Virus record (IMG/VR): IMGVR_UViG_2703718843_000010
Direction: 5' to 3' (one strand)
Source of the DNA: a virus
Taxonomy: Duplodnaviria; Heunggongvirae; Uroviricota; Caudoviricetes
DNA length: 22,143 nt
The notes under the pieces are model-generated. The model had not been told where the DNA came from. It did not search any database and saw nothing but the letters and a program-made list of their open reading frames with translations. The first letter of the stretch is position 1; each line of letters begins with the position of its first letter. Below, piece after piece: positions 1-12,785 of this stretch. A program made the position numbers and the translations under genes.

Positions 1-981
1 TCACACCGCCAGCCCGCCGCCGAGAGGGTTTAACGTTACTGCGTGTTGCAGATAATCGGGGGCAAGGTGAGCATAAACCATCGTCTGTTGTATGCTGGCG
101 TGCCCCAGAATTTGCTGTAACGCAACAATGTTCCCTCCATTCATCATGAACCAGCTTGCGAAAGTATGCCGAAGCACGTGTGTGGCCTGCCCACGTGGTA
201 AATCGGGCTTAACCTGTTTGAGTCGTTCGCAGAAGTTTTCATAGTCAACTTTGAACAGTGGCCCGGTGTCGCTGGTCTTGATCTCTTTCTCCAGTTCTTC
301 CGATATCGGAACGGTGCGCTTTTTTCCGTTTTTGGTCTTAAGGAACGTCACGCGCCCGTGATTAACCTGCTCACCTCGCAGCGTGCTGCCTTCGCCCCAG
401 CGTGCGCCGGTGCTGAGGCATAGCAGTGCTACACGTCGATCGTCGCCGGTCAGAGTATCCAGCAATCTGCTGATCTCTGATTTTGCTAGATAGGTCATAG
501 CTGGCGGCGCTTCTTTCAGTGGTTCCAGACCCTTGCAGGGGTTTTCCTTCCTGAACTCTTCCAGTTTTATCAACGTGCTGAACATCCCGGATAAGCGGTA
601 AATATCCCGGTTGATCGTTGCTGCGCTGATACCGTCTTCCAGCCGTTGGCCTCGGTGCTGAGCAATCATTCGCTTGTTCAGTCGGTTAACGGCTGGATCG
701 CCCAGTGCCCTGATTGTTTTATTCAGGTGCCGCTTTTCAATCTCGCCATTTTCCTGAGTCTGTCCATACAGCAGCCACCAGGTATCTAACAACTCGCTTA
801 AGGTGCGGCGGTCAACGCTCGCGCCCAGCCATTCTTTTTTGTCGGCGTTGGCTAATACATAACGCTCAAAAAGAACCGCCTCTTGTTTTTTCTCAAATCG
901 CCTGCGGATACGTTTTCCGTTACGTCCGCGCGGCCATACGTCTACTTCATATTGACCACCTTCGAGCTTCTTAATCGACAT
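1..981 (-). CDS. int: Tyrosine site-specific integrase, P2 Int family (complete; its stop codon is the first triplet of the window)
   Basis: 326-aa ORF. N-terminus MSIKKLEGGQYEVDVWPRGRNGKRIRRRF and C-terminal catalytic region HVLRHTFASWFMMNGGNIVALQQILGHASIQQTMVYAHLAP closely match phage P2 integrase as I remember it. Sits at the prophage end next to the repressor gene. Confidence 0.95.
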   Translation of the reverse strand: MSIKKLEGGQYEVDVWPRGRNGKRIRRRFEKKQEAVLFERYVLANADKKEWLGASVDRRTLSELLDTWWLLYGQTQENGEIEKRHLNKTIRALGDPAVNRLNKRMIAQHRGQRLEDGISAATINRDIYRLSGMFSTLIKLEEFRKENPCKGLEPLKEAPPAMTYLAKSEISRLLDTLTGDDRRVALLCLSTGARWGEGSTLRGEQVNHGRVTFLKTKNGKKRTVPISEELEKEIKTSDTGPLFKVDYENFCERLKQVKPDLPRGQATHVLRHTFASWFMMNGGNIVALQQILGHASIQQTMVYAHLAPDYLQHAVTLNPLGGGLAV

Positions 982-2938: not shown

Positions 2939-3151
2939 ATGACCAGACGTGAACAATATAGTTTCATTTTGCATGTTCTTTTACCTGCTATCGAAAATGA
3001 AGGGTTAACCATTAAAACCCGCCGTGATGGTGAGTTAACCCTTTCTGCCAGTGGGTCTGTAGCAACCAATTTTATAAGCAATCTGCGCCAGCACTGCATT
3101 GAAGAATTGCAGCGCCCTTCTATTCCAGCTTCCCATTACGGAGTCCTATAA
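2939..3151 (+). CDS. Hypothetical small protein (70 aa) immediately upstream of dam
   Basis: ATG at 2939 with GGAGG at 8-nt spacing; its stop (3149-3151) is one base before the dam ATG. Confidence 0.5.
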   Translation: MTRREQYSFILHVLLPAIENEGLTIKTRRDGELTLSASGSVATNFISNLRQHCIEELQRPSIPASHYGVL

Positions 3152-3152
3152 A

Positions 3153-4124
3153 ATGATCCGCCCGTTCATCAAATGGGCAGGGGGTAAAACCCGTGTCCTC
3201 CCTGACCTGCTGCCGCATCTTCCTAAAGTCGACTGCCTGATCGAACCATTCGTAGGCGGTGCATCGGTATTTCTGGCGACTGAATACCGCCGCTATGTGC
3301 TGGCTGATATCAACCCAGATCTTATTAACCTGTATCGGGAAGTCACCCGTTACCCGGACTTAGTGATCGATGCGGCCCGCGAACTGTTCAACAGTAAGAA
3401 CAACCCGCAGGGATACAACGAAGTCCGCGCCGCGTTCAATAAGCAGGTGGGTACGGTAAAAAGCGGTGGGTTGCGTTATGGCGCTGAAATGGCGTGCATT
3501 ATGCGCGCTGCTCAATTCCTGTATCTGAATCGCCACGGTTATAACGGCTTATGCCGATACAGCCGGAAGACCGGCTTTAACGTGCCGTTTGGCAAGTATA
3601 AGAGCGTCTACTTTCCTGAAAATGAAATCCGCCTGTTTGCCGAAAAGGCCAACGATACAAAGGCAATATTTCTTTGCGCGCCGTTCCAGCGTTCTCTACA
3701 AGTCGTCACGGGTGGCGATGTTCTTGTTTACTGCGATCCGCCTTACCTGCCTGAAAGCAAAACAGCCGATTTTACCCAATACCACACCGAACCATTCACG
3801 GAAGACAACCACCGCCAGTTAGTCCAGGCACTGCTGGAAGTTAACCGTAAGCATGGCGTGAAGGTCGTCATTTCCAACAGCGACACCGAAGCCACCCGCG
3901 TGATTTATCAGCCCTTCAAGATGCACGAAATCAGCGTGCAACGTTCCGTCAGCACTGACAAAGACAACCGCCAGAAGGCCAAAGAAGTGATCGGCGTGCT
4001 GCCTGTCTGCGACTGCTGCGGGCGTTACGGCGGCGGTTGCCCTGATTGTGGCGCCGTGATGGGTGATGCGACTTACAACGCGATGGTTGCGGCGGGCACG
4101 TTTGACGATCTGGAGGCTTTTTAA
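3153..4124 (+). CDS. dam: DNA adenine methyltransferase, Dam family (D12 class, likely GATC), with a C-terminal cysteine-cluster extension
   Basis: N-terminal FIKWAGGK, SAM-binding EPFVGGASVFL and catalytic DPPY, with overall collinearity to E. coli Dam as remembered. Extra tail VCDCCGRYGGGCPDCG. ATG at 3153 with GGAG upstream. Confidence 0.9.
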   Translation: MIRPFIKWAGGKTRVLPDLLPHLPKVDCLIEPFVGGASVFLATEYRRYVLADINPDLINLYREVTRYPDLVIDAARELFNSKNNPQGYNEVRAAFNKQVGTVKSGGLRYGAEMACIMRAAQFLYLNRHGYNGLCRYSRKTGFNVPFGKYKSVYFPENEIRLFAEKANDTKAIFLCAPFQRSLQVVTGGDVLVYCDPPYLPESKTADFTQYHTEPFTEDNHRQLVQALLEVNRKHGVKVVISNSDTEATRVIYQPFKMHEISVQRSVSTDKDNRQKAKEVIGVLPVCDCCGRYGGGCPDCGAVMGDATYNAMVAAGTFDDLEAF

Positions 4125-4444
4125 TGGCAAAAATCTATATCGCTGGCCCGATGAGCGGTTTGCCTGGATTCAATCGGCAGGCTTTTAACCGTGCAGCCGG
4201 GCACGTAGTGCGACGCGGAAACGTTGCCCTTAATCCGGCGATTTTGCCGGATGGATTAGAGCAGGCGGAATACATGGATATTTGCTTCGCCATGTTGCGT
4301 TGTGCTGACGGGATCTTCTTGCTGGATGGCTGGCAGCAGTCTGCCGGAGCTAAGGCAGAGCACGCGCTTGCTGAAAAGCTGGGTTTAGAAATTCAGTACC
4401 AAGTAATCGATCGGTGTAGCCGAAAGGCGGAGGGGCAGCAGTGA
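4124..4444 (+). CDS. DUF4406-like protein (nucleoside 2-deoxyribosyltransferase-like fold)
   Basis: 106 aa beginning MAKIYIAGPMSG...NPAILP, the hallmark N-terminus of the DUF4406 family. ATG overlaps the dam stop (TAATG). Confidence 0.75.
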   Translation: MAKIYIAGPMSGLPGFNRQAFNRAAGHVVRRGNVALNPAILPDGLEQAEYMDICFAMLRCADGIFLLDGWQQSAGAKAEHALAEKLGLEIQYQVIDRCSRKAEGQQ

Positions 4445-5355
4445 CCGCCTACTACAACGAAATCGACCCCTTCGCCGCGCAATACCTGCGCAACCTCATT
4501 GATGCCGGGCTTATCGCTTCCGGTGTTGTCGATACTCGTTCCGTTGAGGATGTAACCCCAAATGACCTTAAAGGATTCTCACAAGTCCACCTGTTTGCAG
4601 GTTTTGGAGGCTGGCCCCGTGCTTTGCGCGTCGCAGGATGGCCGGACGACCGCCCAGTATGGACAGCAAGTTGCCCATGCCAACCTTTCAGCCAGGCAGG
4701 CGAAGGAAAACAATTTGATGATGAGCGGCACCTATGGCCCGCCGTTCATTGGCTTGCAGGCCAGCAACGCCCTGTCGTTATATTTGGCGAACAGTCTTCA
4801 AGCAAAGATGCAGAAGTCTGGATCGACCTTGTACAAACTGACATGGAAAGTTTGGGCTATGCCTTCGGGGCGTCGGCGTTTCCGTCTGCGGGCGTCGGTG
4901 CGCCGCACATCCGGGAGCGTACTTACTGGCTGGCCGACTCCAACCGCGAGCAATACGAAGAACGCTTATCAGGATGCCGAGAAGGTGATCGCCAGGAAGC
5001 TGGCTGGTCGGCAGTCGAACTTACAGGGCTTTGCTTGTCTTGCGGGTTGGCCCACCCCTGCGGCGAGGGATGGAAAGGGCGGGTATCAGGGAGGAAGGAT
5101 GCGGCACGGGAAGCTGTCAACGGATACGCTGGATGTGACAGCGCAGATAGCAGGCCCGGCCCGGTTAACGGATTCTGGGGATCTGCTGACTGGCTCCTTT
5201 GCAGAGATGGAAAGTGGAGGCCAGTTAAACCCGGCCTTAAGCCTCTGGTTGATGGGGTTCCCTCCAGAGTGGGAAAACTACGCGCCAGCGGAAACGCCGT
5301 AAATATCTATGCAGCCGCAACTTTCTTAAAAGCCTACATGGAGATCGCGCAATGA
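4441..5355 (+). CDS. DNA cytosine-5 methyltransferase (phage-type); a second long overlapping frame is described in findings
   Basis: GTG start overlapping the upstream stop (GTGA). Motif I FAGFGG, motif IV PCQPFSQAG, GEQ-type motif VI region, motif VIII GAPHIRERTYWLA, motif X GNAVN...FLKAY. Stop overlaps the gene A ATG. Confidence 0.8.
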   Translation: MTAYYNEIDPFAAQYLRNLIDAGLIASGVVDTRSVEDVTPNDLKGFSQVHLFAGFGGWPRALRVAGWPDDRPVWTASCPCQPFSQAGEGKQFDDERHLWPAVHWLAGQQRPVVIFGEQSSSKDAEVWIDLVQTDMESLGYAFGASAFPSAGVGAPHIRERTYWLADSNREQYEERLSGCREGDRQEAGWSAVELTGLCLSCGLAHPCGEGWKGRVSGRKDAAREAVNGYAGCDSADSRPGPVNGFWGSADWLLCRDGKWRPVKPGLKPLVDGVPSRVGKLRASGNAVNIYAAATFLKAYMEIAQ

Positions 5356-7757
5356 CCACGGCAACCCGTGGCCGTCGCGCCCCTTCTCCACCTCCACCGT
5401 ATCCGGGTAGCACTGACAATGCTATCCCTTACGCTTATGGCGGGAACAAACCATACCAGCCTATTGGCGTTGATGTAGCGCCGGGGCTGGATGGTTTCGA
5501 CTATCTCACGCCGGACGGCACGCGTAAGCATATTGCGTTCAGTGAACTGGTAGCGGAAGACGAAAAGCCGGAGCGCAGCAAGCTGCTGCGTCGCCGCCTG
5601 GCTTCTCTTCCGCAGTATATCCGCCGCCACTTTGCCGCGAAGCTGGATGCACTGGACGCGAAAGACCGCAAAGCGGCAGATCACTGGCTGGTTAATACAT
5701 TTGAGCGCCACGTATTAACGCGTATTGATAGCGTGAACAGTGTTTACCAGCCTGACACTGTGATGCCCGGCATTCTGCTGCCAATCCGCGATCAGCTTTT
5801 CCGTATGCTCTGGGCAGGGAAGAAAGAGTTAAAAAGACTGGCTTATACGCTTGCCGATATCTTTACGAGCGAGTTTATACGCGAGTCCGATCACCAGTTG
5901 GCACGCACCGGAGATCCTGAGTTCGCGGCGCTTTCTGGCTATGGCCGTATTGCGTCGCTGGCGGTGCATCTGAAAACGCCGATCCCTGGCTGGACGGCGT
6001 ATTGCAATGAAGAACTGGAAGCGGAGGACGCGTTACGCGCGGTTCTTCGCCTTGAGTCACCGCAGTGGTGGTTAAACCGCCTGCGCCGTATCCATGCCCG
6101 GTGGCGTGAGCATTTGATGATCGCAGCGGGATACGTCCAGAAAAAATCTTCCCCATACAGTAGCGCCCCGTGCCTTACGGAGTGGTTGGCCCAGAAAAAG
6201 GCTAACCGTGAATACCTTAAGGCTATGGAACTGGAAGACCAGGACACGGGCGAACGCATTTCACTGATCGATAAAGTCGCCGGTAGTGTTGCCAATCCGG
6301 CCAACCGTCGCCGCGAACTCATGACGAGAATGCGCGGATTTGAAGATCTGGCGAAGCTGGAAGGGCTGGCCGGTGACTTCTACACGCTAACAGCACCTTC
6401 CCGTTACCACTCCATGCAGCATAACGGGCGCCGCAATAATAAATACTGTGGCGCGTCGCCGCGCGAGACGCAGCAATATCTTTGCAAAGTCTGGGCGAGA
6501 ACCCGCGCAGCGTGGAAGAGAAAAGGGATCCGCGTCTTTGGTTTCCGCGTGGTCGAACCGCACCACGATGCAACGCCACACTGGCATTTACTTCTTTTTA
6601 TGCGCCCGGAATGCGTCGAGCAGGCGCGCGAAATCTTCCGTAAATATGCCCTGAAAGAAGACGGCAACGAACCGGGAGCGCAGGAAAACCGCTTTCAGGT
6701 TGTGCCGATCGACGATGCCCACGGCAGCGCAACCGGCTACATAGCGAAATACATTTCGAAGAATATCGACGGCTTCGCGCTGGATGGTGAGAAGGACGAC
6801 GAAACCGGGGAAGACCTGAAAGAAATGTCACTCCGCGTTAGCGCGTGGGCATCGCGCTGGGCTATTCGTCAGTTTCAGCAGATCGGCGGTGCGCCGGTCA
6901 CGGTATATCGCGAACTTCGCCGCCTGGGCGATCGCGAACTGGTGTTACACCCTGAACTGGAAACCGCCCGGCAGGCCGCTAACGGTGGCGAATGGGATAA
7001 CTACGTATTAGCCCAGGGTGGACCGTTGGTTGAGCGCGATAAGCTGCGCATCCGTCTGAATTATGAAACCACTGAAAACGGCAACGCCTACGGCGATAAC
7101 GTCCAGCGAATCACTGGTATTTACTGCCCGATTACGGGCAATGACTCTTTGATCTTCACCCGCACCACTCAATACAAAATCGTGCCGAAGCGCCAGAGCG
7201 CTGACGGTGTGGCCGTTGACGTTGGTTTTTCAGGCGGCAACGCCGCCCCTCGGAGTTCTGTCAATAACTGTACGCGGGATCCCGCGGCAGGTGCTGACGG
7301 TGTAGAACATGCCGCCAGCGAAGCTACAGGGCAGTCAGAAATGACTGAGCCAGCTGAGGGCGTGACGGTGAATTTTGATGCGCTTTCACGGCAGGAAAAG
7401 CGAGAATTGGCGCAGCGGCTCAGTGCCGATGTGCGAAGTAAGCGTAAAAAACGGCCACCGGATAGGGAAGACAGGGCCGGGCTGTCCGTGAAAGAGCAGC
7501 AGATCAGTGAACTGCTGGCGCTGCGTGGGATTGATGCCAGCGCCGGAATGGTCAGATCGATGATGGCCGGTGCGTCAGTGGCGTGCGGCGATCTTGTTAT
7601 GACCGTGCAGGACGGGCGGCTGGTGTCGCGCAATCGCGCCGCGTCGGGGATAGGTAAATTAGCAACTGAAAAAATGGCAGTTAAGAAAAAATCTGATGAA
7701 CTTCTCAATCGCTGGAAAGTGGCTGTAAAAATTAACAGGGGTAAGTTGACAAATTGA
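5352..7757 (+). CDS. A: Replication initiation protein A (rolling-circle HUH endonuclease), P2 gpA-like
   Basis: 801 aa with HUH-type motif EPHHDATPHWHLLLF and active-site tyrosine motif GYIAKYISKNIDG; collinear with remembered P2 A. Confidence 0.95.
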   Translation: MTTATRGRRAPSPPPPYPGSTDNAIPYAYGGNKPYQPIGVDVAPGLDGFDYLTPDGTRKHIAFSELVAEDEKPERSKLLRRRLASLPQYIRRHFAAKLDALDAKDRKAADHWLVNTFERHVLTRIDSVNSVYQPDTVMPGILLPIRDQLFRMLWAGKKELKRLAYTLADIFTSEFIRESDHQLARTGDPEFAALSGYGRIASLAVHLKTPIPGWTAYCNEELEAEDALRAVLRLESPQWWLNRLRRIHARWREHLMIAAGYVQKKSSPYSSAPCLTEWLAQKKANREYLKAMELEDQDTGERISLIDKVAGSVANPANRRRELMTRMRGFEDLAKLEGLAGDFYTLTAPSRYHSMQHNGRRNNKYCGASPRETQQYLCKVWARTRAAWKRKGIRVFGFRVVEPHHDATPHWHLLLFMRPECVEQAREIFRKYALKEDGNEPGAQENRFQVVPIDDAHGSATGYIAKYISKNIDGFALDGEKDDETGEDLKEMSLRVSAWASRWAIRQFQQIGGAPVTVYRELRRLGDRELVLHPELETARQAANGGEWDNYVLAQGGPLVERDKLRIRLNYETTENGNAYGDNVQRITGIYCPITGNDSLIFTRTTQYKIVPKRQSADGVAVDVGFSGGNAAPRSSVNNCTRDPAAGADGVEHAASEATGQSEMTEPAEGVTVNFDALSRQEKRELAQRLSADVRSKRKKRPPDREDRAGLSVKEQQISELLALRGIDASAGMVRSMMAGASVACGDLVMTVQDGRLVSRNRAASGIGKLATEKMAVKKKSDELLNRWKVAVKINRGKLTN
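7233..7287. other. Candidate replication origin (nick-site region) inside gene A
   Basis: Hairpin GGCGG-CAACG-CCGCC, then CCTCGGAGTTCTGTCAATAACTG, then perfect palindrome CGCGGGATCCCGCG. Encodes the AAPRSSVNNC linker that I remember as the ori-containing part of P2 A. Confidence 0.35.
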
Positions 7758-7774
7758 AAAATCTGCACCATCAT
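7746..7774 (+). promoter_or_regulatory. Candidate promoter for the cargo cassette (TTGACA, 17-nt spacer, CATCAT)
   Basis: Perfect -35 hexamer at 7746-7751 and a weak -10 at 7769-7774; a second TTGACA...TGCAC module follows 34 bp downstream. Confidence 0.3.
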
Positions 7775-7820
7775 TCTGGTTGACAAAGTTTGATATTTGC
7801 ACTCATGGAGATTTGGATTG

Positions 7821-8414
7821 ATGTCTAAGCAGCCTTTACCTTGGGACTTTCACCCACAATTAACTGAAGAGCGTTTAACAATTATTGCTAAAGAATTGTT
7901 AAGGGTCTTAAATGACACATATGCTCAACTTTCGACCACCTTGGATAACAACTATACACGTTCTACTTGTACTTTTGGTCGTCAATGGCAGTTACTTATT
8001 GATTTATGTTTGAGTGGACAGTACGACTGGCTTCATCTCACCAACGCTGGTTTAGACATCACTTTTACGATCGATACAATTCCTGTTCGTTTCTTCACTG
8101 ATGATCCGGCCAATCCTAAAAAGGATGGTTTTTATCGTCGAAATCCTGCTGATCAGCTTTTTGCTCCTGAGGTGGACATTCCCGTTTTACATCGCTTTGT
8201 TGTTGAGAAACCCGAATTTGAGGGTGAAGGCGCTAAAGTTCATTTCATTGGTTATAACGCTTTGGACGAAGAAGTATCTAAGTGGACGTACAACGATGAA
8301 CCAACAACAGCATTGTTGCACTCTACGGATGATACACCGCCAGAGTCTGTTAGAATTGAACTTGATGACATTCGCCCTTCTCGTCCCGAAAAGGAAGAAA
8401 AAGAGAGCGATTGA
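7821..8414 (+). CDS. Hypothetical protein (197 aa), first gene of the hotspot cassette; candidate effector or toxin
   Basis: ATG at 7821 with GGAG upstream. No motif I recognise; acidic, low-complexity C-terminal tail (PSRPEKEEKESD). AT-richer than the flanking phage genes. Confidence 0.6.
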   Translation: MSKQPLPWDFHPQLTEERLTIIAKELLRVLNDTYAQLSTTLDNNYTRSTCTFGRQWQLLIDLCLSGQYDWLHLTNAGLDITFTIDTIPVRFFTDDPANPKKDGFYRRNPADQLFAPEVDIPVLHRFVVEKPEFEGEGAKVHFIGYNALDEEVSKWTYNDEPTTALLHSTDDTPPESVRIELDDIRPSRPEKEEKESD

Positions 8415-8437: not shown

Positions 8438-9550
8438 GTGTTTAACGGTTCTAATTTAAGATTGGCTCGTCTGTATCACGAGCTATCACTGGAGCAAGTA
8501 GCTGAGCGGGTCGATAAGACCCGCCAGTATATTCAGCGGCTGGAATCCGGCACGGCTGTTCCAACACCCGAGCTTGCGAATAAATTAGCTGCCGTCTTGC
8601 TGGTGATGCCTCATTTTTTTGAAGAGCAATGGCAGTCTCCTGTAAATGAAGAGATCGTTCACTTCCGCAAGCGTAGTTCTACGAGAGTCGCCACAAAAAT
8701 GGCGACTCTCGCCAAAGCTGAGCTGTATCGACGACTTATTGAAATTTTTGAAGAGTATCTGGAGTTACCGCAAGTAAGATTTCCTGAACTGAAGGTGGAT
8801 ACTCAAGAGGATATCGAAAAAGCAGCGGAGAAGTGCCGGACTGATTGGGGGCTAGGTTTTGGGCCGATCGATAACATGACTCGTCTTGCTGAAAAGCTGG
8901 GAGCGTTTGTCACTTCTTTTGATTCTGTTTCTGACGATGTTGATGCTCTTTCTGTTCCTTTGAGCCGCCCATTTATCGTAAGGAATACAGCTAAAAAGTC
9001 ACCCTGCCGTCAGCGGTTTGATATCGCTCACGAGGTTGCACATTTAATTTTACATGAGGGTGTCTCTACTGGAGACAGGGCTACTGAGTCGCAGGCTAAC
9101 CGCTTCGCGTCTGCATTGCTTTTGCCAAGAACAGCTATGGCGAAATATTTTCCACGTCCGATTGGTGGTCGAATCGACTGGCAAGGTCTTAGCCAGTTTA
9201 AATTAACGTGGAAAGTGAGTAAGGCCGCGATCATTTATAGAGCACATCAACTTGGGCTTTTAACTGACGCTCAATACAAAACCGCCTTTTTTGGTCTCAA
9301 GCGAAAGGGGGAGGCTATTGATGAGAAAGAAGATTATTTGATCCCTTGTGAGAAGCCAGAACTATTCAGTAAAGCAATGAAATGCCTGTTAAATGATTTG
9401 TCCGTGGATATTGAAACATTAGCCCAGCGTTTGAGCATAACCCCTACGATGCTCGCAGAACTTGCTAATGATGACACTTTGGTTTCTGCGTCATGTGTGA
9501 ACTCTGAGAATGTAATTTCAATGTTTGCGTATCGGATGAAAACTGCTTAA
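8438..9550 (+). CDS. XRE-family HTH fused to ImmA/IrrE-type (M78, COG2856) zinc metallopeptidase, with an extra C-terminal region
   Basis: GTG start with AAGGTG at 5-nt spacing. N-terminal HTH LRLARLYHELSLEQVAERVDKTRQYIQRLESG; HExxH motif HEVAH encoded at 9029-9043 within the ImmA-like core; about 150 further residues after the core. Confidence 0.85.
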   Translation: MFNGSNLRLARLYHELSLEQVAERVDKTRQYIQRLESGTAVPTPELANKLAAVLLVMPHFFEEQWQSPVNEEIVHFRKRSSTRVATKMATLAKAELYRRLIEIFEEYLELPQVRFPELKVDTQEDIEKAAEKCRTDWGLGFGPIDNMTRLAEKLGAFVTSFDSVSDDVDALSVPLSRPFIVRNTAKKSPCRQRFDIAHEVAHLILHEGVSTGDRATESQANRFASALLLPRTAMAKYFPRPIGGRIDWQGLSQFKLTWKVSKAAIIYRAHQLGLLTDAQYKTAFFGLKRKGEAIDEKEDYLIPCEKPELFSKAMKCLLNDLSVDIETLAQRLSITPTMLAELANDDTLVSASCVNSENVISMFAYRMKTA

Positions 9551-9564
9551 AAATCGCTGTGATG

Positions 9565-9593
9565 AAAAATCCCGCTTCGGCGGGATTTTTTTT
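9565..9593. terminator. Rho-independent terminator, potentially bidirectional
   Basis: Stem AATCCCGC / GCGGGATT with TTCG loop followed by eight T; a five-A run precedes the stem. Confidence 0.8.
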
Positions 9594-9996
9594 AGAAGAT
9601 GTCTGCACAATAGTGCACAAATTTGCACAATTTTTTTGATGCTGTTTATGCCCTTTCCGCCCTGTGGCGGCGCGGTCTGCCCCCGGATCGGCAAGTGCAC
9701 AAAAAACGAAGCAAATGTCGCGCGCAGGTGACGGGGGAACAGCCCACGCGACAGGGGTCAGGGAGGGGGTGCCATTAAATGCCATTCTTCGGCCTTTTCC
9801 GCCTTCTTAGCGCGCTTTCTCGCTTCTGGATATGTGCGGGGTCGATTGCAGTTTGCACCTGCCAGAATGGTGCTCATTCGCTCTGAGTGAGGGGGGTAAA
9901 TGCTGCGCTGAGTGGTGTTCAGGTGGTGGCCGGTCATGCGGGGATTGAAAATTACTGAAGGAGAGCCGCCGCAGGATGTGCGGCGGGTGGGTCGGG
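9594..9996. other. cos / packaging region (inferred from synteny; exact cohesive-end position not determined)
   Basis: About 400-bp non-coding interval between the cargo terminator and the 3' end of portal gene Q, where P2 has cos. Contains G-rich tracts and the TGCACAA repeats. Confidence 0.4.
9604..9630. repeat. Three TGCACAA direct repeats at exact 10-bp spacing (9604, 9614, 9624); fourth copy at 9696-9702
   Basis: Read directly from the sequence. Confidence 0.8.
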
Positions 9997-11055
9997 TCAC
10001 TCGTCTTTGAGCAGAGCGTACGGATTAAAGCGGATCACTTCCTGGCCGAGCCAGTCATTGACGCCCTTCATGGCTTCCATCACAGGCAACATTTCGTTGA
10101 TAGCGAAGACACGCGCGGCCTTCTCAACATCACCGAGCGAGCCGTTGCCTTCCGGCATTGCGCCCATTAGCTGTGGCGGGATGCGGTGAGCGTCGCGCAG
10201 ATCGTTGCGCGTGGCTGCTTTGATGTTAAGAAACTCATCCTTTGCCGATATCTGGCTGAACGGCAACAGTTGCACGCCGTCTTTGCCGCCGCCCGGCGCG
10301 TGGATCAGCACGTTTTTGAAGGAGCCTTTCCCTCTGGCCTGTGACAGCGTCTTTTGCACCACCTTGATGCTTTCCTGATCCACCTTCTCCGAACCGACAT
10401 AGAGAATACATCCGGCGTGAGAGCCGTTGTCATAGTAGAGTTTGCGGAACCTGTCGGCAGAATGGGACAGGCTGGCGGACAACAGCGCCCCCATGTACTC
10501 CGGCATACCGTAGATTTCCTGATGAATGTCAGGGTTCATGATGTGGCAGACCTCGCCCGCCCTGAACTCGTATTCATCTTTCCACTGCCGGATAAACCAG
10601 TAGGTATCAAGATCGCTTCCCCGTCGCGTGTTCAGCGCCGGAACATGCTTAAGTTTTAGCGGCTCTCCCAGGCGATTAGACCGACGCTCAAGATAGGCAT
10701 TGCCGAAGACAAACCAGTCCAGCGCAAACGCAGAGAACGCCTGCCGCGAGAGTAACGGATGAGGGATATAGCACCCGGTCAGCACATTGCGTTTGAAGTA
10801 AAGCGCCGACTGATGCAGCGGGGACTGTGCGAACGCACGGGTTAACCCCTTCCAGTCTATTGGCGTTTCGTAGTACCGGCCGTTATCGACACAGCACATG
10901 CTGTCCAGCAGATCATAGCCGTCCGTTACCGAATATGGTCCGTCAAACGTGAAGGCGCTAAGCGCCGGATCGCTTCTGAGCGCGTCAGAGATATCAGGCT
11001 GACCGGCACTGCCGCTGCTGGCAGTGTGTTTGTTTTTGTATGTGCGCTTCTTCAT
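9997..11055 (-). CDS. Q: Portal protein, P2 gpQ-like
   Basis: 352-aa ORF adjacent to and co-oriented with the large terminase; start ATG overlaps the P stop (ATGA). Confidence 0.9.
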   Translation of the reverse strand: MKKRTYKNKHTASSGSAGQPDISDALRSDPALSAFTFDGPYSVTDGYDLLDSMCCVDNGRYYETPIDWKGLTRAFAQSPLHQSALYFKRNVLTGCYIPHPLLSRQAFSAFALDWFVFGNAYLERRSNRLGEPLKLKHVPALNTRRGSDLDTYWFIRQWKDEYEFRAGEVCHIMNPDIHQEIYGMPEYMGALLSASLSHSADRFRKLYYDNGSHAGCILYVGSEKVDQESIKVVQKTLSQARGKGSFKNVLIHAPGGGKDGVQLLPFSQISAKDEFLNIKAATRNDLRDAHRIPPQLMGAMPEGNGSLGDVEKAARVFAINEMLPVMEAMKGVNDWLGQEVIRFNPYALLKDE

Positions 11056-12785
11056 CAGAACTCCATAGCAAACCCGCCGCTGCCACTCTCCTGGCCCAGC
11101 GGTTCGTTAATAATGGCGAGCATATTCGCCCAGGCTAAATCCCCGTGGCTGACGCCGCGCGAGCGGTCAGTGTCATAGGTGATGAATCCGCCCGGCGTCT
11201 TTACCTTGCGAACAGAGTTAAAGGCGTTGATCAGGGCGCGCTCGCTGCGGTCATATTCCCATCGCCCGGCGCGGATCAGCTGTAGCATTTTCAGCACCAG
11301 GGCGCGCTTTGACGTCATTGACATGGTGTAGGGCATCGCCATCGGGAAAAACTTCTTCACTATCTGGTAAACGGCTTCACCATTACCGCCCGTCACGTCG
11401 ATGCCGACATGCTGAACGTTGTATTTGAAGGTGAAGTTTTCGATAACTTTCGCCTGCTCTTCAAATTCAAGGCCGCGCACCTGTTCCGTTTCCACCGTGC
11501 GGAATTTACCGCCTGGCACCAGTGGCGGAACCACGACGCAAATCGCGCCGCTGTCGCCGTTGCCGCTGCTGCCGTTGGCGTCATAACCTATCCACACCGG
11601 GCGGTTACCCATCGGCCTGGACGCAAAAGGTTTCCAGTCCGGCCATTCGTCGTAACCATCTGCCCCGCAGCCAATCAGGGCGTTAAGGTTGAAGGCTGAC
11701 TCGCCATCGCGCACGAACTCGCACATGTACAGGTTGCGGAATTCATCCTCACTGTTTTCATCCTGAATTTCTTCAAGGTCGGTATATTCCCAGCCGTGGT
11801 CTATCACGTCCTTCAGAGTGACAATCTGACGCCAGGTTTTATCCGGGCATAGCAGGCCGCTGTTCAGCGTTTTCCAGCCCACATCAAACGCTTTGCGCTG
11901 TGCCTTCGGGCGTTTCTCATTCCAGCGATCGCCTGTCCAGAAAGGGTAAGCCTCATGGGTTTCACCTGACGGCGTGGAAAAGTAGGTACGCGTCAGCCCT
12001 TTCAGCGTTGCCATTGCACCTGCAACCTTTCGCAGGTTGGTGAAGTTGCTGACCCAGAAGAATTCATCGAACTTCAGGTTGCCCGTATATGACTGTGCCG
12101 TCGCTGCGGACGTGCCGAGGAAATGAAGCTCTGCGCCGTTACTCAGTACGATTTTGTCGCCCCCCTTAAGCTCAACATCCACTTCTTCGGCCATCCTCTG
12201 AATGAATCCCCTGAACTGGTGCGCCTGACGGCGGGATGCTGACAGAAATATCTGGTTGCGTTGGTACGGGTATTTCACATCATCGCGCAGCGCATCCAAC
12301 AACGCCTCGCGTGCAAAGTACCAGGTTGCGCCAATCTGGCGGGACTTCAGTATCATGCGGTTTCGGTGGTGGCGTTGCTCATACCAGCCGCGTTGATGCC
12401 ACGAAAGCGAATCAAGTATTTTCTCCCGCAGCGCGACGATCTGTTCTTCGGTGAAGTGGTTTTTCAGCTTGCGCTTGCGTGGCTTTTTGCCCGCCCCAGC
12501 CCCTGCCGGTTGTCCGTCAGACAGTTTTTTCAGTTGCCGGGTCAGCAGATCAATCTCCTTAAAGTCTCCCCCGGTCTTGTCTTTCTTGTCCGTAAGCTGG
12601 ATGAGGCGGGCATCCATAGACTGGCTGACGCGCTGTACGGGCGGCGTTTCATCCCATTCATCGCGTTTCTTCCAGGCATAAATTGTGTTCTGATTAATCC
12701 CCATCAGGCGCGCGATCTCCGCTGGCGGGTAGCCCTGCCAGTAAAGTTGTTTTGCCCTCTGACGTACAAAAGCGTCCTGTATCAT
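11055..12785 (-). CDS. P: Terminase large (ATPase) subunit, P2 gpP-like
   Basis: 576 aa with Walker-A-like SRQIGATW and an N-terminal HTH-like segment; divergent from O as in P2. Confidence 0.9.
   Translation of the reverse strand: MIQDAFVRQRAKQLYWQGYPPAEIARLMGINQNTIYAWKKRDEWDETPPVQRVSQSMDARLIQLTDKKDKTGGDFKEIDLLTRQLKKLSDGQPAGAGAGKKPRKRKLKNHFTEEQIVALREKILDSLSWHQRGWYEQRHHRNRMILKSRQIGATWYFAREALLDALRDDVKYPYQRNQIFLSASRRQAHQFRGFIQRMAEEVDVELKGGDKIVLSNGAELHFLGTSAATAQSYTGNLKFDEFFWVSNFTNLRKVAGAMATLKGLTRTYFSTPSGETHEAYPFWTGDRWNEKRPKAQRKAFDVGWKTLNSGLLCPDKTWRQIVTLKDVIDHGWEYTDLEEIQDENSEDEFRNLYMCEFVRDGESAFNLNALIGCGADGYDEWPDWKPFASRPMGNRPVWIGYDANGSSGNGDSGAICVVVPPLVPGGKFRTVETEQVRGLEFEEQAKVIENFTFKYNVQHVGIDVTGGNGEAVYQIVKKFFPMAMPYTMSMTSKRALVLKMLQLIRAGRWEYDRSERALINAFNSVRKVKTPGGFITYDTDRSRGVSHGDLAWANMLAIINEPLGQESGSGGFAMEF

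Follow-up and report, generated by a model that had tools for sequence, protein, structure and literature searches.

What does the long C-terminal region do in a protein that joins a helix-turn-helix (HTH) domain to an ImmA/IrrE-type zinc peptidase? The question is raised by a single gene, rmrA, at positions 8438–9550 of a 22,143-nucleotide stretch of viral DNA (Duplodnaviria; Heunggongvirae; Uroviricota; Caudoviricetes; IMG/VR record IMGVR_UViG_2703718843_000010), the whole of which we call the window. The original prediction, made from the sequence alone, treated the C-terminal region as an added domain and a candidate sensor of phage or stress. Judging from profile matches, RmrA is almost certainly the antitoxin of a RosmerTA toxin-antitoxin (TA) cassette, and its C-terminal region is very probably integral to the family and not an add-on.

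The RosmerTA cassette

The open reading frame of rmrA is a real gene. It has a ribosome-binding site (AGGTG) 6 nucleotides 5′ of its GTG start, the RefSeq start is identical in a 99.6%-identical Escherichia coli chromosome, and an identical protein is present in a public protein collection (P0001). A co-oriented gene ends 23 nucleotides upstream. The two genes of the cassette are:

7821–8414, plus strand: rmrT, putative toxin gene, 197 amino acids from its ATG; PADLOC model PDLC03929; RefSeq uses this ATG, the program-made list of open reading frames starts at TTG 7797.
8438–9550, plus strand: rmrA, 370 amino acids, GTG start and TAA stop.

RmrA matches the PADLOC RmrA model PDLC03943 with 676 bits (E-value 3e-204), the alignment covering residues 1–369 of 370, and 13 further PADLOC RmrA models match it with E-values from 1e-33 to 1e-72. 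The product of the upstream gene matches the PADLOC RmrT model (304 bits, E 9e-92), and rmrT is found directly 5′ of rmrA in nearly all of 80 related loci. The earlier placement of the gene in a defence-type cassette is borne out, the cassette being RosmerTA. Sequence and comparison show that rmrT and rmrA form a bicistronic operon, which has a promoter, a tandem candidate operator and a terminator of its own, and that the cassette is mobile cargo. RmrT has no Pfam or PDB sequence match, and its AlphaFold2 model, built from an alignment of database homologues (predicted local distance difference test, pLDDT, 77.7), has no significant fold match.

RosmerTA is a toxin-antitoxin-type anti-phage system, in which a construct lacking rmrA could not be transformed, presumably owing to toxicity (Millman et al. 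2022, 10.1101/2022.05.11.491447). The ImmA-domain protein RmrA is a hub antitoxin that occurs with many different toxins (Ernits et al. 2023, PMC10440598), and the Kita RmrT depolarises membranes (PMC10440598). Phage resistance has been shown for other Rosmer subfamilies (10.1101/2022.05.11.491447; PMC10440598).

The verified RosmerTA system of E. coli OLC-716 is likewise a two-gene defence cassette. Its RmrA is also an HTH and zinc-peptidase protein of 370 residues, and it aligns with RmrA of the window over residues 1–302 with 31% identity (E 6e-40). The two share the FR motif of the linker, the HExxH motif and the start of the C-terminal region, and PADLOC files both proteins under RmrA/RmrT. 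The cassettes differ in their RmrA subfamily, which is PDLC03943 here, and in their toxins, which are unrelated; similarity between RmrT (197 amino acids) and the OLC-716 toxin (239 amino acids) is not detectable. We know of no experimental test of subfamily PDLC03943.

A second relative is the RipAB system (Spr1630/Spr1629) of Streptococcus pneumoniae. RipB is an HTH-M78 antitoxin that includes the C-terminal region, and the NCBIfam model NF052239 (spr1629 family repressor/antitoxin) aligns with residues 1–344 of RmrA (E 5e-49). RipB neutralises RipA, and RipAB has been placed in the Rosmer family by its authors (PMC12795458). The target of RipA is the DnaN sliding clamp, and RipB is ClpX-dependent (PMC12795458); nothing ties the RmrT of the window to DnaN.

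The C-terminal region of RmrA

The regions of RmrA, with their positions in the window, are:

8438–8623, plus strand: residues 1–62, XRE-type HTH DNA-binding domain, with the recognition helix KTRQY at residues 27–31.
8660–8671, plus strand: near-invariant linker motif H75-F76-R77(-K78) between the HTH and the peptidase.
8789–9250, plus strand: residues ~118–271, M78 (ImmA/IrrE, COG2856) zinc-peptidase domain, with HEVAH (H198, E199, H202) at 9029–9043 and E217 at 9086–9088.
9251–9361, plus strand: residues 272–308, called C1 here, a helix (277–290) followed by a loop with the near-invariant acidic residues E292, E296, D299 and E305.
9362–9472, plus strand: residues 309–345, called C2 here, with helices 309–320, 325–331 and 336–343, a putative degenerate HTH-like unit.
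9473–9550, plus strand: residues 346–370 and the stop codon, a variable tail of low model confidence.

Pfam HTH_3 matches residues 7–54 (E 4e-12, an XRE-type HTH), and Peptidase_M78 (ImmA/IrrE) matches residues 151–269 (E 3e-18) over positions 1–122/123 of the model, which is its full length. The HExxH...E site is intact, with H198, E199, H202, H206 and E217 each at least 97% conserved in an alignment of 72 sequences. The predicted HTH-ImmA/IrrE fusion with an intact HExxH motif, HEVAH at residues 198–202, is confirmed. The estimate that HTH and peptidase core occupy about 220 residues and leave about 150 extra is not, because the Pfam M78 match alone reaches residue 269; E217, the invariant candidate for the third zinc ligand, and four further helices of the M78 domain lie C-terminal of HExxH. 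The part of RmrA beyond any domain model is roughly 100 residues long (~272–370), and poor conservation is limited to residues 346–370. The peptide YKTAFFGLKRKGEAIDEKEDYLIPCEKPELFSKAMKCLL quoted in support of the extension corresponds to residues 280–318.

Several observations indicate that this part belongs to the family as a whole. All 14 PADLOC RmrA profiles and NF052239 align through residue ~335–360 of RmrA. Nearly all of the best 120 homologues in the database have lengths of ~360–390 amino acids (357–390 over all comparisons), and most tblastn matches in 80 genomes reach residue 342 or beyond, down to 42% identity. Across 72 homologues (42–92% identity) there are no gaps in residues 272–345. 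When residues 272–345 alone were searched with phmmer against 1.84 billion representative proteins, only 29 matches came back. Wherever enough sequence is present, the matched module directly follows M78 and ends ~25 residues from the C-terminus, and the proteins are RmrA-like or N-terminally truncated RmrA-like fragments. The few matches in giant proteins look spurious; one that was scanned has unrelated repeat-type domains. Because profiles, lengths, the gapless alignment, the OLC-716 RmrA and the phmmer search agree, we take the C-terminal region to be a constant of the family. The description of an added domain does not hold for a region which is gapless in 72 homologues and common to RmrAs with unrelated toxins.

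Column conservation, given as regional means over the 72-sequence alignment, is 0.58 in the HTH, 0.55 in the linker (63–83), 0.53 in the helix at 84–117 and 0.69 in M78. C1 scores 0.62 and C2 0.40, both gapless; the tail scores 0.24 with 28% gaps. Near-invariant in C1 are L272 and L287 in addition to the four acidic residues. In the linker, conservation is 97% or more at H75, F76 and R77, and the neighbouring block 61–70 scores 0.34; the verified OLC-716 RmrA has SFR in place of HFR.

That the region simply belongs to a canonical M78 fold is borne out in part. Up to residue 269 it lies in the Pfam model, and residues 272–308 show core-like conservation, whereas residues 309–345 appear to form a separate HTH-like unit. 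An AlphaFold2 model of RmrA, built with 58 sequences, has a mean pLDDT of 89.2 and a predicted TM-score (pTM) of 0.86. The pLDDT is 84–95 through residue 340, with C2 at ~90, and it is 50–73 in the tail, falling to 50–57 over residues 351–370. In this model the C-terminus is all-helical, with helices at 277–290, 309–320, 325–331 and 336–343. The C2 segments of homologues are matched by Pfam HTH_31 in 6 of 33 cases (best E 1e-5) and by HTH_3 in 5 of 33. TIGR02607 (HigA) matches residues 317–351 of RmrA, and HipB gives a weak match at 310–357. C2 is best described, on the model and these matches, as a degenerate second HTH-like unit; it is not expected to bind DNA, because its would-be recognition helix (TPTMLAEL) is hydrophobic and not polar. 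An internal duplication of the HTH was considered, and the hhalign match between the C-terminal and N-terminal HTH profiles (15 columns, probability 67%) is too weak for such a claim.

Fold matches of RmrA to CapP and PprI span only 148–156 residues, in fold searches that report no aligned residue ranges. Searches of PDB sequences and profiles found a single protein of the same architecture, 9vzy (393 amino acids, HTH cro/C1-type domain-containing protein). It aligns weakly with residues 178–283 of RmrA, in the M78 region (E 1e-3), and has the same layout of HTH, M78 and C-terminal region. A literature search did not find a paper for this structure.

The rate at which the regions evolve was estimated crudely, as the ratio of nonsynonymous to synonymous differences (pN/pS) by region in 14 enterobacterial rmrA genes, with synonymous sites near saturation. 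The ratio is 0.22 in the HTH, 0.18 in the linker and following helix, 0.11 in M78, 0.10 in C1 (0.096, the lowest in RmrA), 0.41 in C2 and 0.60 in the tail. It exceeds 1 in no region, and the near-saturated synonymous sites limit this test for positive selection. A separate observation in the same 14 copies concerns the first 62 codons (8438–8623), where pS is 0.48 compared with 0.71–0.76 elsewhere in the gene; recombination could account for it, as could a constraint acting at the mRNA level, for instance translational coupling.

These rates bear on the proposal that the C-terminal region, especially residues 309–370, senses a phage protein or a stress signal and in response activates or shuts down the M78 protease. 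C2 and the tail are the fastest evolving and least conserved parts of RmrA, with pN/pS well above the ~0.10 of the core, and specificity surfaces in an arms race often evolve fast. C-terminal accessory domains are also found in related proteases. CapP has a GAF-like domain at its C-terminus. IrrE has a GAF-like domain of unknown function in the same place (PMC6868357), whereas the C-terminus of RmrA is all-helical in the model and its segments match only HTH models. The region thus resembles a degenerate HTH and neither a GAF domain nor any other ligand-binding fold. It was not acquired by RmrA, since its length and position are fixed in the family and across RmrA subfamilies with unrelated toxins, and the fast evolution of C2 and the tail fits relaxed constraint and a specificity surface equally well. 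We consider a sensor of this kind improbable.

The usual design of type II antitoxins, with DNA bound by the N-terminus and toxin by the C-terminus, suggests instead that the C-terminal region is the domain by which RmrA binds and neutralises RmrT. The strict linkage of rmrT and rmrA would fit this, and the conserved acidic residues E292, E296, D299 and E305 could form an interaction surface. However, the same C-terminal architecture is found in RmrAs with unrelated toxins, and AlphaFold failed to predict the RmrT-RmrA complex of another Rosmer system (PMC10440598). The C-terminus also has the lowest co-divergence with RmrT. In a mirror-tree test, which is weak and in which C2 is near saturation, the partial correlation with RmrT divergence is 0.16 in C1 and 0.12 in C2, compared with 0.51 in the HTH. 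Toxin-specific contacts in C1 and C2 are therefore not supported, and we regard a toxin-binding role as unlikely.

The candidate operator and the flanking repeats

The original prediction also proposed that the HTH binds TGCAC-containing repeats on both sides of the cassette. Over the whole window TGCAC shows no enrichment (46 occurrences, 62.9 expected); its local clusters are real and have two different origins. Upstream of rmrT it occurs at 7764–7768 and 7798–7802, as the 3′ box of a direct repeat, 7745–7768 and 7779–7802, of the form GTTGACAAA-N10/11-TGCAC with copies 34 bp apart. The elements are:

7745–7774, plus strand: candidate operator copy 1, over the cassette promoter; 5′ box GTTGACAAA, TTGACA at 7746–7751, a 17-nucleotide spacer ending in TGCAC, and CATCAT at 7769–7774.
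7779–7802, plus strand: candidate operator copy 2, GTTGACAAAGTTTGATATTTGCAC, spanning roughly transcript positions +1 to +25; followed by the Shine-Dalgarno sequence GGAG at 7808–7811.
9565–9598, plus strand: intrinsic terminator of the cassette; a perfect 11-bp stem, AAAAATCCCGC/GCGGGATTTTT (9565–9590), with a 4-nucleotide loop, then a run of T.
9604–9638, plus strand: TGCACA three times at 10-bp spacing, then T7, TGCACAATAGTGCACAAATTTGCACAATTTTTTTG; P2-like backbone 3′ of the cassette terminator.

In a promoter scan copy 1, with its TTGACA, 17-nucleotide spacer and CATCAT, scores 10/12 as a sigma-70 promoter. Copy 2 as a second promoter is rejected, as it has no -10 element and lies only 22–83 nucleotides (mostly ~23–41) before the start codon in the related loci, which in the majority leaves no space for another promoter and a leader.

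Both boxes are kept in an 80%-identical cassette in which the spacers and flanking bases differ. Of 76 related loci, which come from many Proteobacteria, one Dehalococcoidia and one Verrucomicrobia metagenome-assembled genome, 69 have the pair of tandem boxes (TTGACaAA-N9-ttGCAc), against a background of 0.004 pairs per 200 nucleotides. The spacing of the pair is 31–34 bp, usually 33 or 34, in all loci but one (37). The two copies in a locus have matching variants of the box: TGCAC/TGCAC, TGCAA/TGCAA, TGCCA/TGCCA, AGCAA/AGCAA, AGTCC/AGTCC or GGAAC/AGAAC. Identity of the 3′ box is 0.77 within loci and 0.59 between loci, a difference reached in none of 2000 permutations, whereas spacers do not co-vary (0.37 within, 0.35 between).

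The boxes also follow the class of the recognition helix (residues 27–34 of RmrA). KTRQY(I/L)(Q/H) occurs with a TTGACA 5′ box and SKQFLSR with TTGACG, while the WGKTL...TRQYVSQ class occurs with a GGAACA 3′ box and an Acinetobacter class with AGCAAT. This tracking is consistent with co-evolution of HTH and operator. The upstream boxes are likely a repeated protein-binding signature, for which the RmrA HTH is the obvious candidate binder; their recurrence in 69 of the 76 loci and their co-variation inside loci make them the likely RmrA operator. Comparison of the loci makes autoregulation by RmrA through this operator likely, on the pattern of classical type II TA systems.

The downstream repeats are a different case. 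TGCACA is found at 9604, 9614 and 9624, and again at 9696. The stem of the terminator is kept in the diverged cassette while its flanks differ, and the TGCACA triplet is 100% conserved between the window and the diverged cassette locus, again with differing flanks. Identical copies of the triplet stand beside different cargo in P88_4B11 and in E. coli A0 34/86, and phage phiT5282H has an almost identical one. The element TGCACAATAGTGCACAAATTTGCACAATTTTTTTG comes immediately 3′ of whatever the hotspot holds (L004 3002–3028, L085 3503–3540 and, in phiT5282H, L003 3518–3552), and ~150 E. coli genomes match only positions 9589–9798 of the window, without the cassette. The triplet as an element of the cassette is rejected, since it occurs beside unrelated cargo and in genomes that lack the cassette; for the same reasons it is, on this comparison, P2-like backbone near cos. 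The proposed binding of flanking repeats by the HTH thus has strong comparative evidence upstream and fails downstream. GTGCA and TGCAC can pair as a weak hairpin before the run of T, which gives a terminator-like match in the scan, and the triplet could function as a weak hairpin terminator, as a packaging-related site or as a cos-proximal binding site. Nearby, GGTGACGGGGGAACAGCCC at 9728–9746 resembles the 19-nucleotide cohesive end of P2 and is presumably cos; the block around it is fully conserved in a diverged P2-like prophage.

The defence hotspot and the proposed mechanism

The window is a P2-like prophage, in which the genes on either side of the cassette include Cox. Its landmarks are:

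1–981, minus strand: integrase, followed by early genes.
1051–1428: C-repressor-like HTH protein of the lysogeny module, at the opposite end from the cassette.
5352–7757: replication endonuclease gpA, followed by the cassette.
9997–11055, minus strand: portal, gpQ.
11055–12785, minus strand: terminase, then the capsid, lysis and tail genes.

The interval between gpA and cos/gpQ is a published defence hotspot of P2 (Rousset et al. 2022, PMC9122126; PMC13586616). The rmrTA cassette sits in this interval, where relatives have variable cargo; the position is in keeping with a role in phage resistance. The old/tin locus of P2 occupies the same site between gene A and cos/gpQ and is likewise interchangeable cargo (PMC9122126; PMC13586616); the cargo here is RosmerTA and not old/tin, PARIS or another system. 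P88_4B11 and E. coli A0 34/86 have ParM plus other genes at the hotspot. In E. coli CFIAFB20190157 (L002 2660–5805) an 80%-identical RosmerTA stands behind ParM/partition genes in the same hotspot. Homology between that locus and the window begins exactly at the operator (7745), which delimits the mobile unit. Outside P2-like prophages, rmrTA occurs in many contexts across Proteobacteria, together with its promoter, operator and terminator.

This setting bears on a further reading, that the gene is an ImmR/ImmA-like, LexA-like repressor-protease switch for induction of the P2-like prophage and has no part in defence or TA function. Fusions of Xre and COG2856 have been likened to LexA, and the induction switch of ICEBs1 and some phages is a COG2856/Xre pair (PMC2701414, PMC6868357). 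Yet rmrA lies in the accessory hotspot by cos and not in the lysogeny module, which is found at the opposite prophage end; P2-like prophages whose hotspot is filled by different cargo lack rmrA, and the cassette with RmrT is found in the many non-P2 contexts noted above. Such a switch is extremely improbable.

Other genes near the hotspot are side observations. Phage phiT5282H (L003 181–3464) has an 'FtsH-like' ATPase of 360 amino acids and an unannotated protein of 734 amino acids at the same site, a pair that may be another two-gene defence candidate. In the early region 5′ of gpA the window encodes a D12-class Dam-like adenine methyltransferase (3099–4124), a DUF4406 protein (4124–4444) and a protein whose match to C-5 cytosine methyltransferase is partial (4441–5355); these genes are likely anti-restriction or epigenetic cargo. 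In E. coli XYEH3783, the host of a 99%-identical cassette, the Dam gene is disrupted at the equivalent place.

Taken as a whole, we have good confidence in the explanation that RmrA is the antitoxin and repressor of a RosmerTA cassette, carried as cargo of the hotspot, with a C-terminus that is constant in the family. The cassette would run from the promoter/operator (7745–7802) through rmrT (7821–8414) and rmrA (8438–9550) to the terminator (9565–9598). The XRE HTH of RmrA would bind the two tandem bipartite operators, 33–34 bp apart, as comparative evidence strongly suggests; copy 1 would cover the -35 element and spacer of the promoter, copy 2 the transcript start, and the result would be autorepression. 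RmrA would keep RmrT harmless, as is known for verified RosmerTA systems. Infection would then disturb RmrA, by loss, by inhibition or by proteolysis triggered through the HExxH...E site, so that RmrT could act and the infection would be aborted. This TA and abortive-infection logic, drawn by analogy with verified systems, is on balance favoured.

The role of the C-terminus in such a mechanism is more speculative. Together with C1 and C2, the peptidase could form a platform for oligomerisation, for docking of partners, or for both, which we put forward tentatively and with low confidence. The HFR linker motif would be the most plausible site of an intramolecular, LexA-like cleavage or of a latch. 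ImmA and IrrE cleave their XRE partners C-terminal of the HTH domain (PMC6868357), and the analogy to LexA for Xre-COG2856 fusions was proposed by Makarova et al. (PMC2701414). It is also conceivable, and quite improbable, that the acidic loop and the degenerate HTH form a trigger-responsive lid on M78, such that phage sensing leads RmrA to cut itself at H75-F76-R77, the operon is derepressed and RmrT is freed. If this were true, RmrA would be a LexA-like single-chain repressor, protease and antitoxin, which would give RosmerTA a defined mechanism of sensing and activation.

Several points count against this explanation or limit its reach. The score of RmrA with NF052239 (167 bits) is below the equivalog cut-off of 335 bits, which makes RmrA a homologue and not an equivalog of RipB. 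The co-variation of recognition helix and operator is confounded by clade structure. Packing of the C-terminus on the peptidase is suggested by the pTM and pLDDT values alone, and the low mirror-tree correlations of C1 and C2 with RmrT speak against a contact with the toxin there. For this subfamily we infer the toxicity of RmrT, its neutralisation, the binding of DNA and the proteolysis alike.

In ImmA/ImmR of ICEBs1 and IrrE(PprI)/DdrO of Deinococcus the XRE repressor is a separate protein, whereas in RmrA the HTH and the protease are one polypeptide; the genes of the cassette include no separate XRE substrate repressor comparable to ImmR, DdrO or CapH. CapP and CapH of CBASS (PDB 7t5t, 7t5u) are also separate proteins, which regulate transcription of the CBASS operon, have another C-terminal domain and have no toxin partner. 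Proteins of the PrpR/RamB type (HTH, M78-like and DUF2083; PDB 6d2s/6cyj) are metabolic transcription factors of ~470 amino acids with another C-terminal domain, and their sequence match to RmrA does not extend beyond the HTH (NF038139, E 0.16).

The system, the family assignment and the genomic niche of rmrTA are already catalogued. The leads added here are incremental and will hardly surprise a specialist: a layout of the domains of RmrA, a second HTH in degenerate form, an acidic loop in C1, the HFR motif and an operator whose boxes co-vary. A map of RmrA into HTH, HFR linker, M78, acidic C1, HTH-like C2 and tail is a practical aid for work on the mechanism of RosmerTA, and 9vzy might be used as an experimental template for family members. 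The widely conserved candidate operator is useful for work on DNA binding and regulation. For the family itself, the presence of one C-terminal region in RmrAs with unrelated toxins narrows what that region can do.

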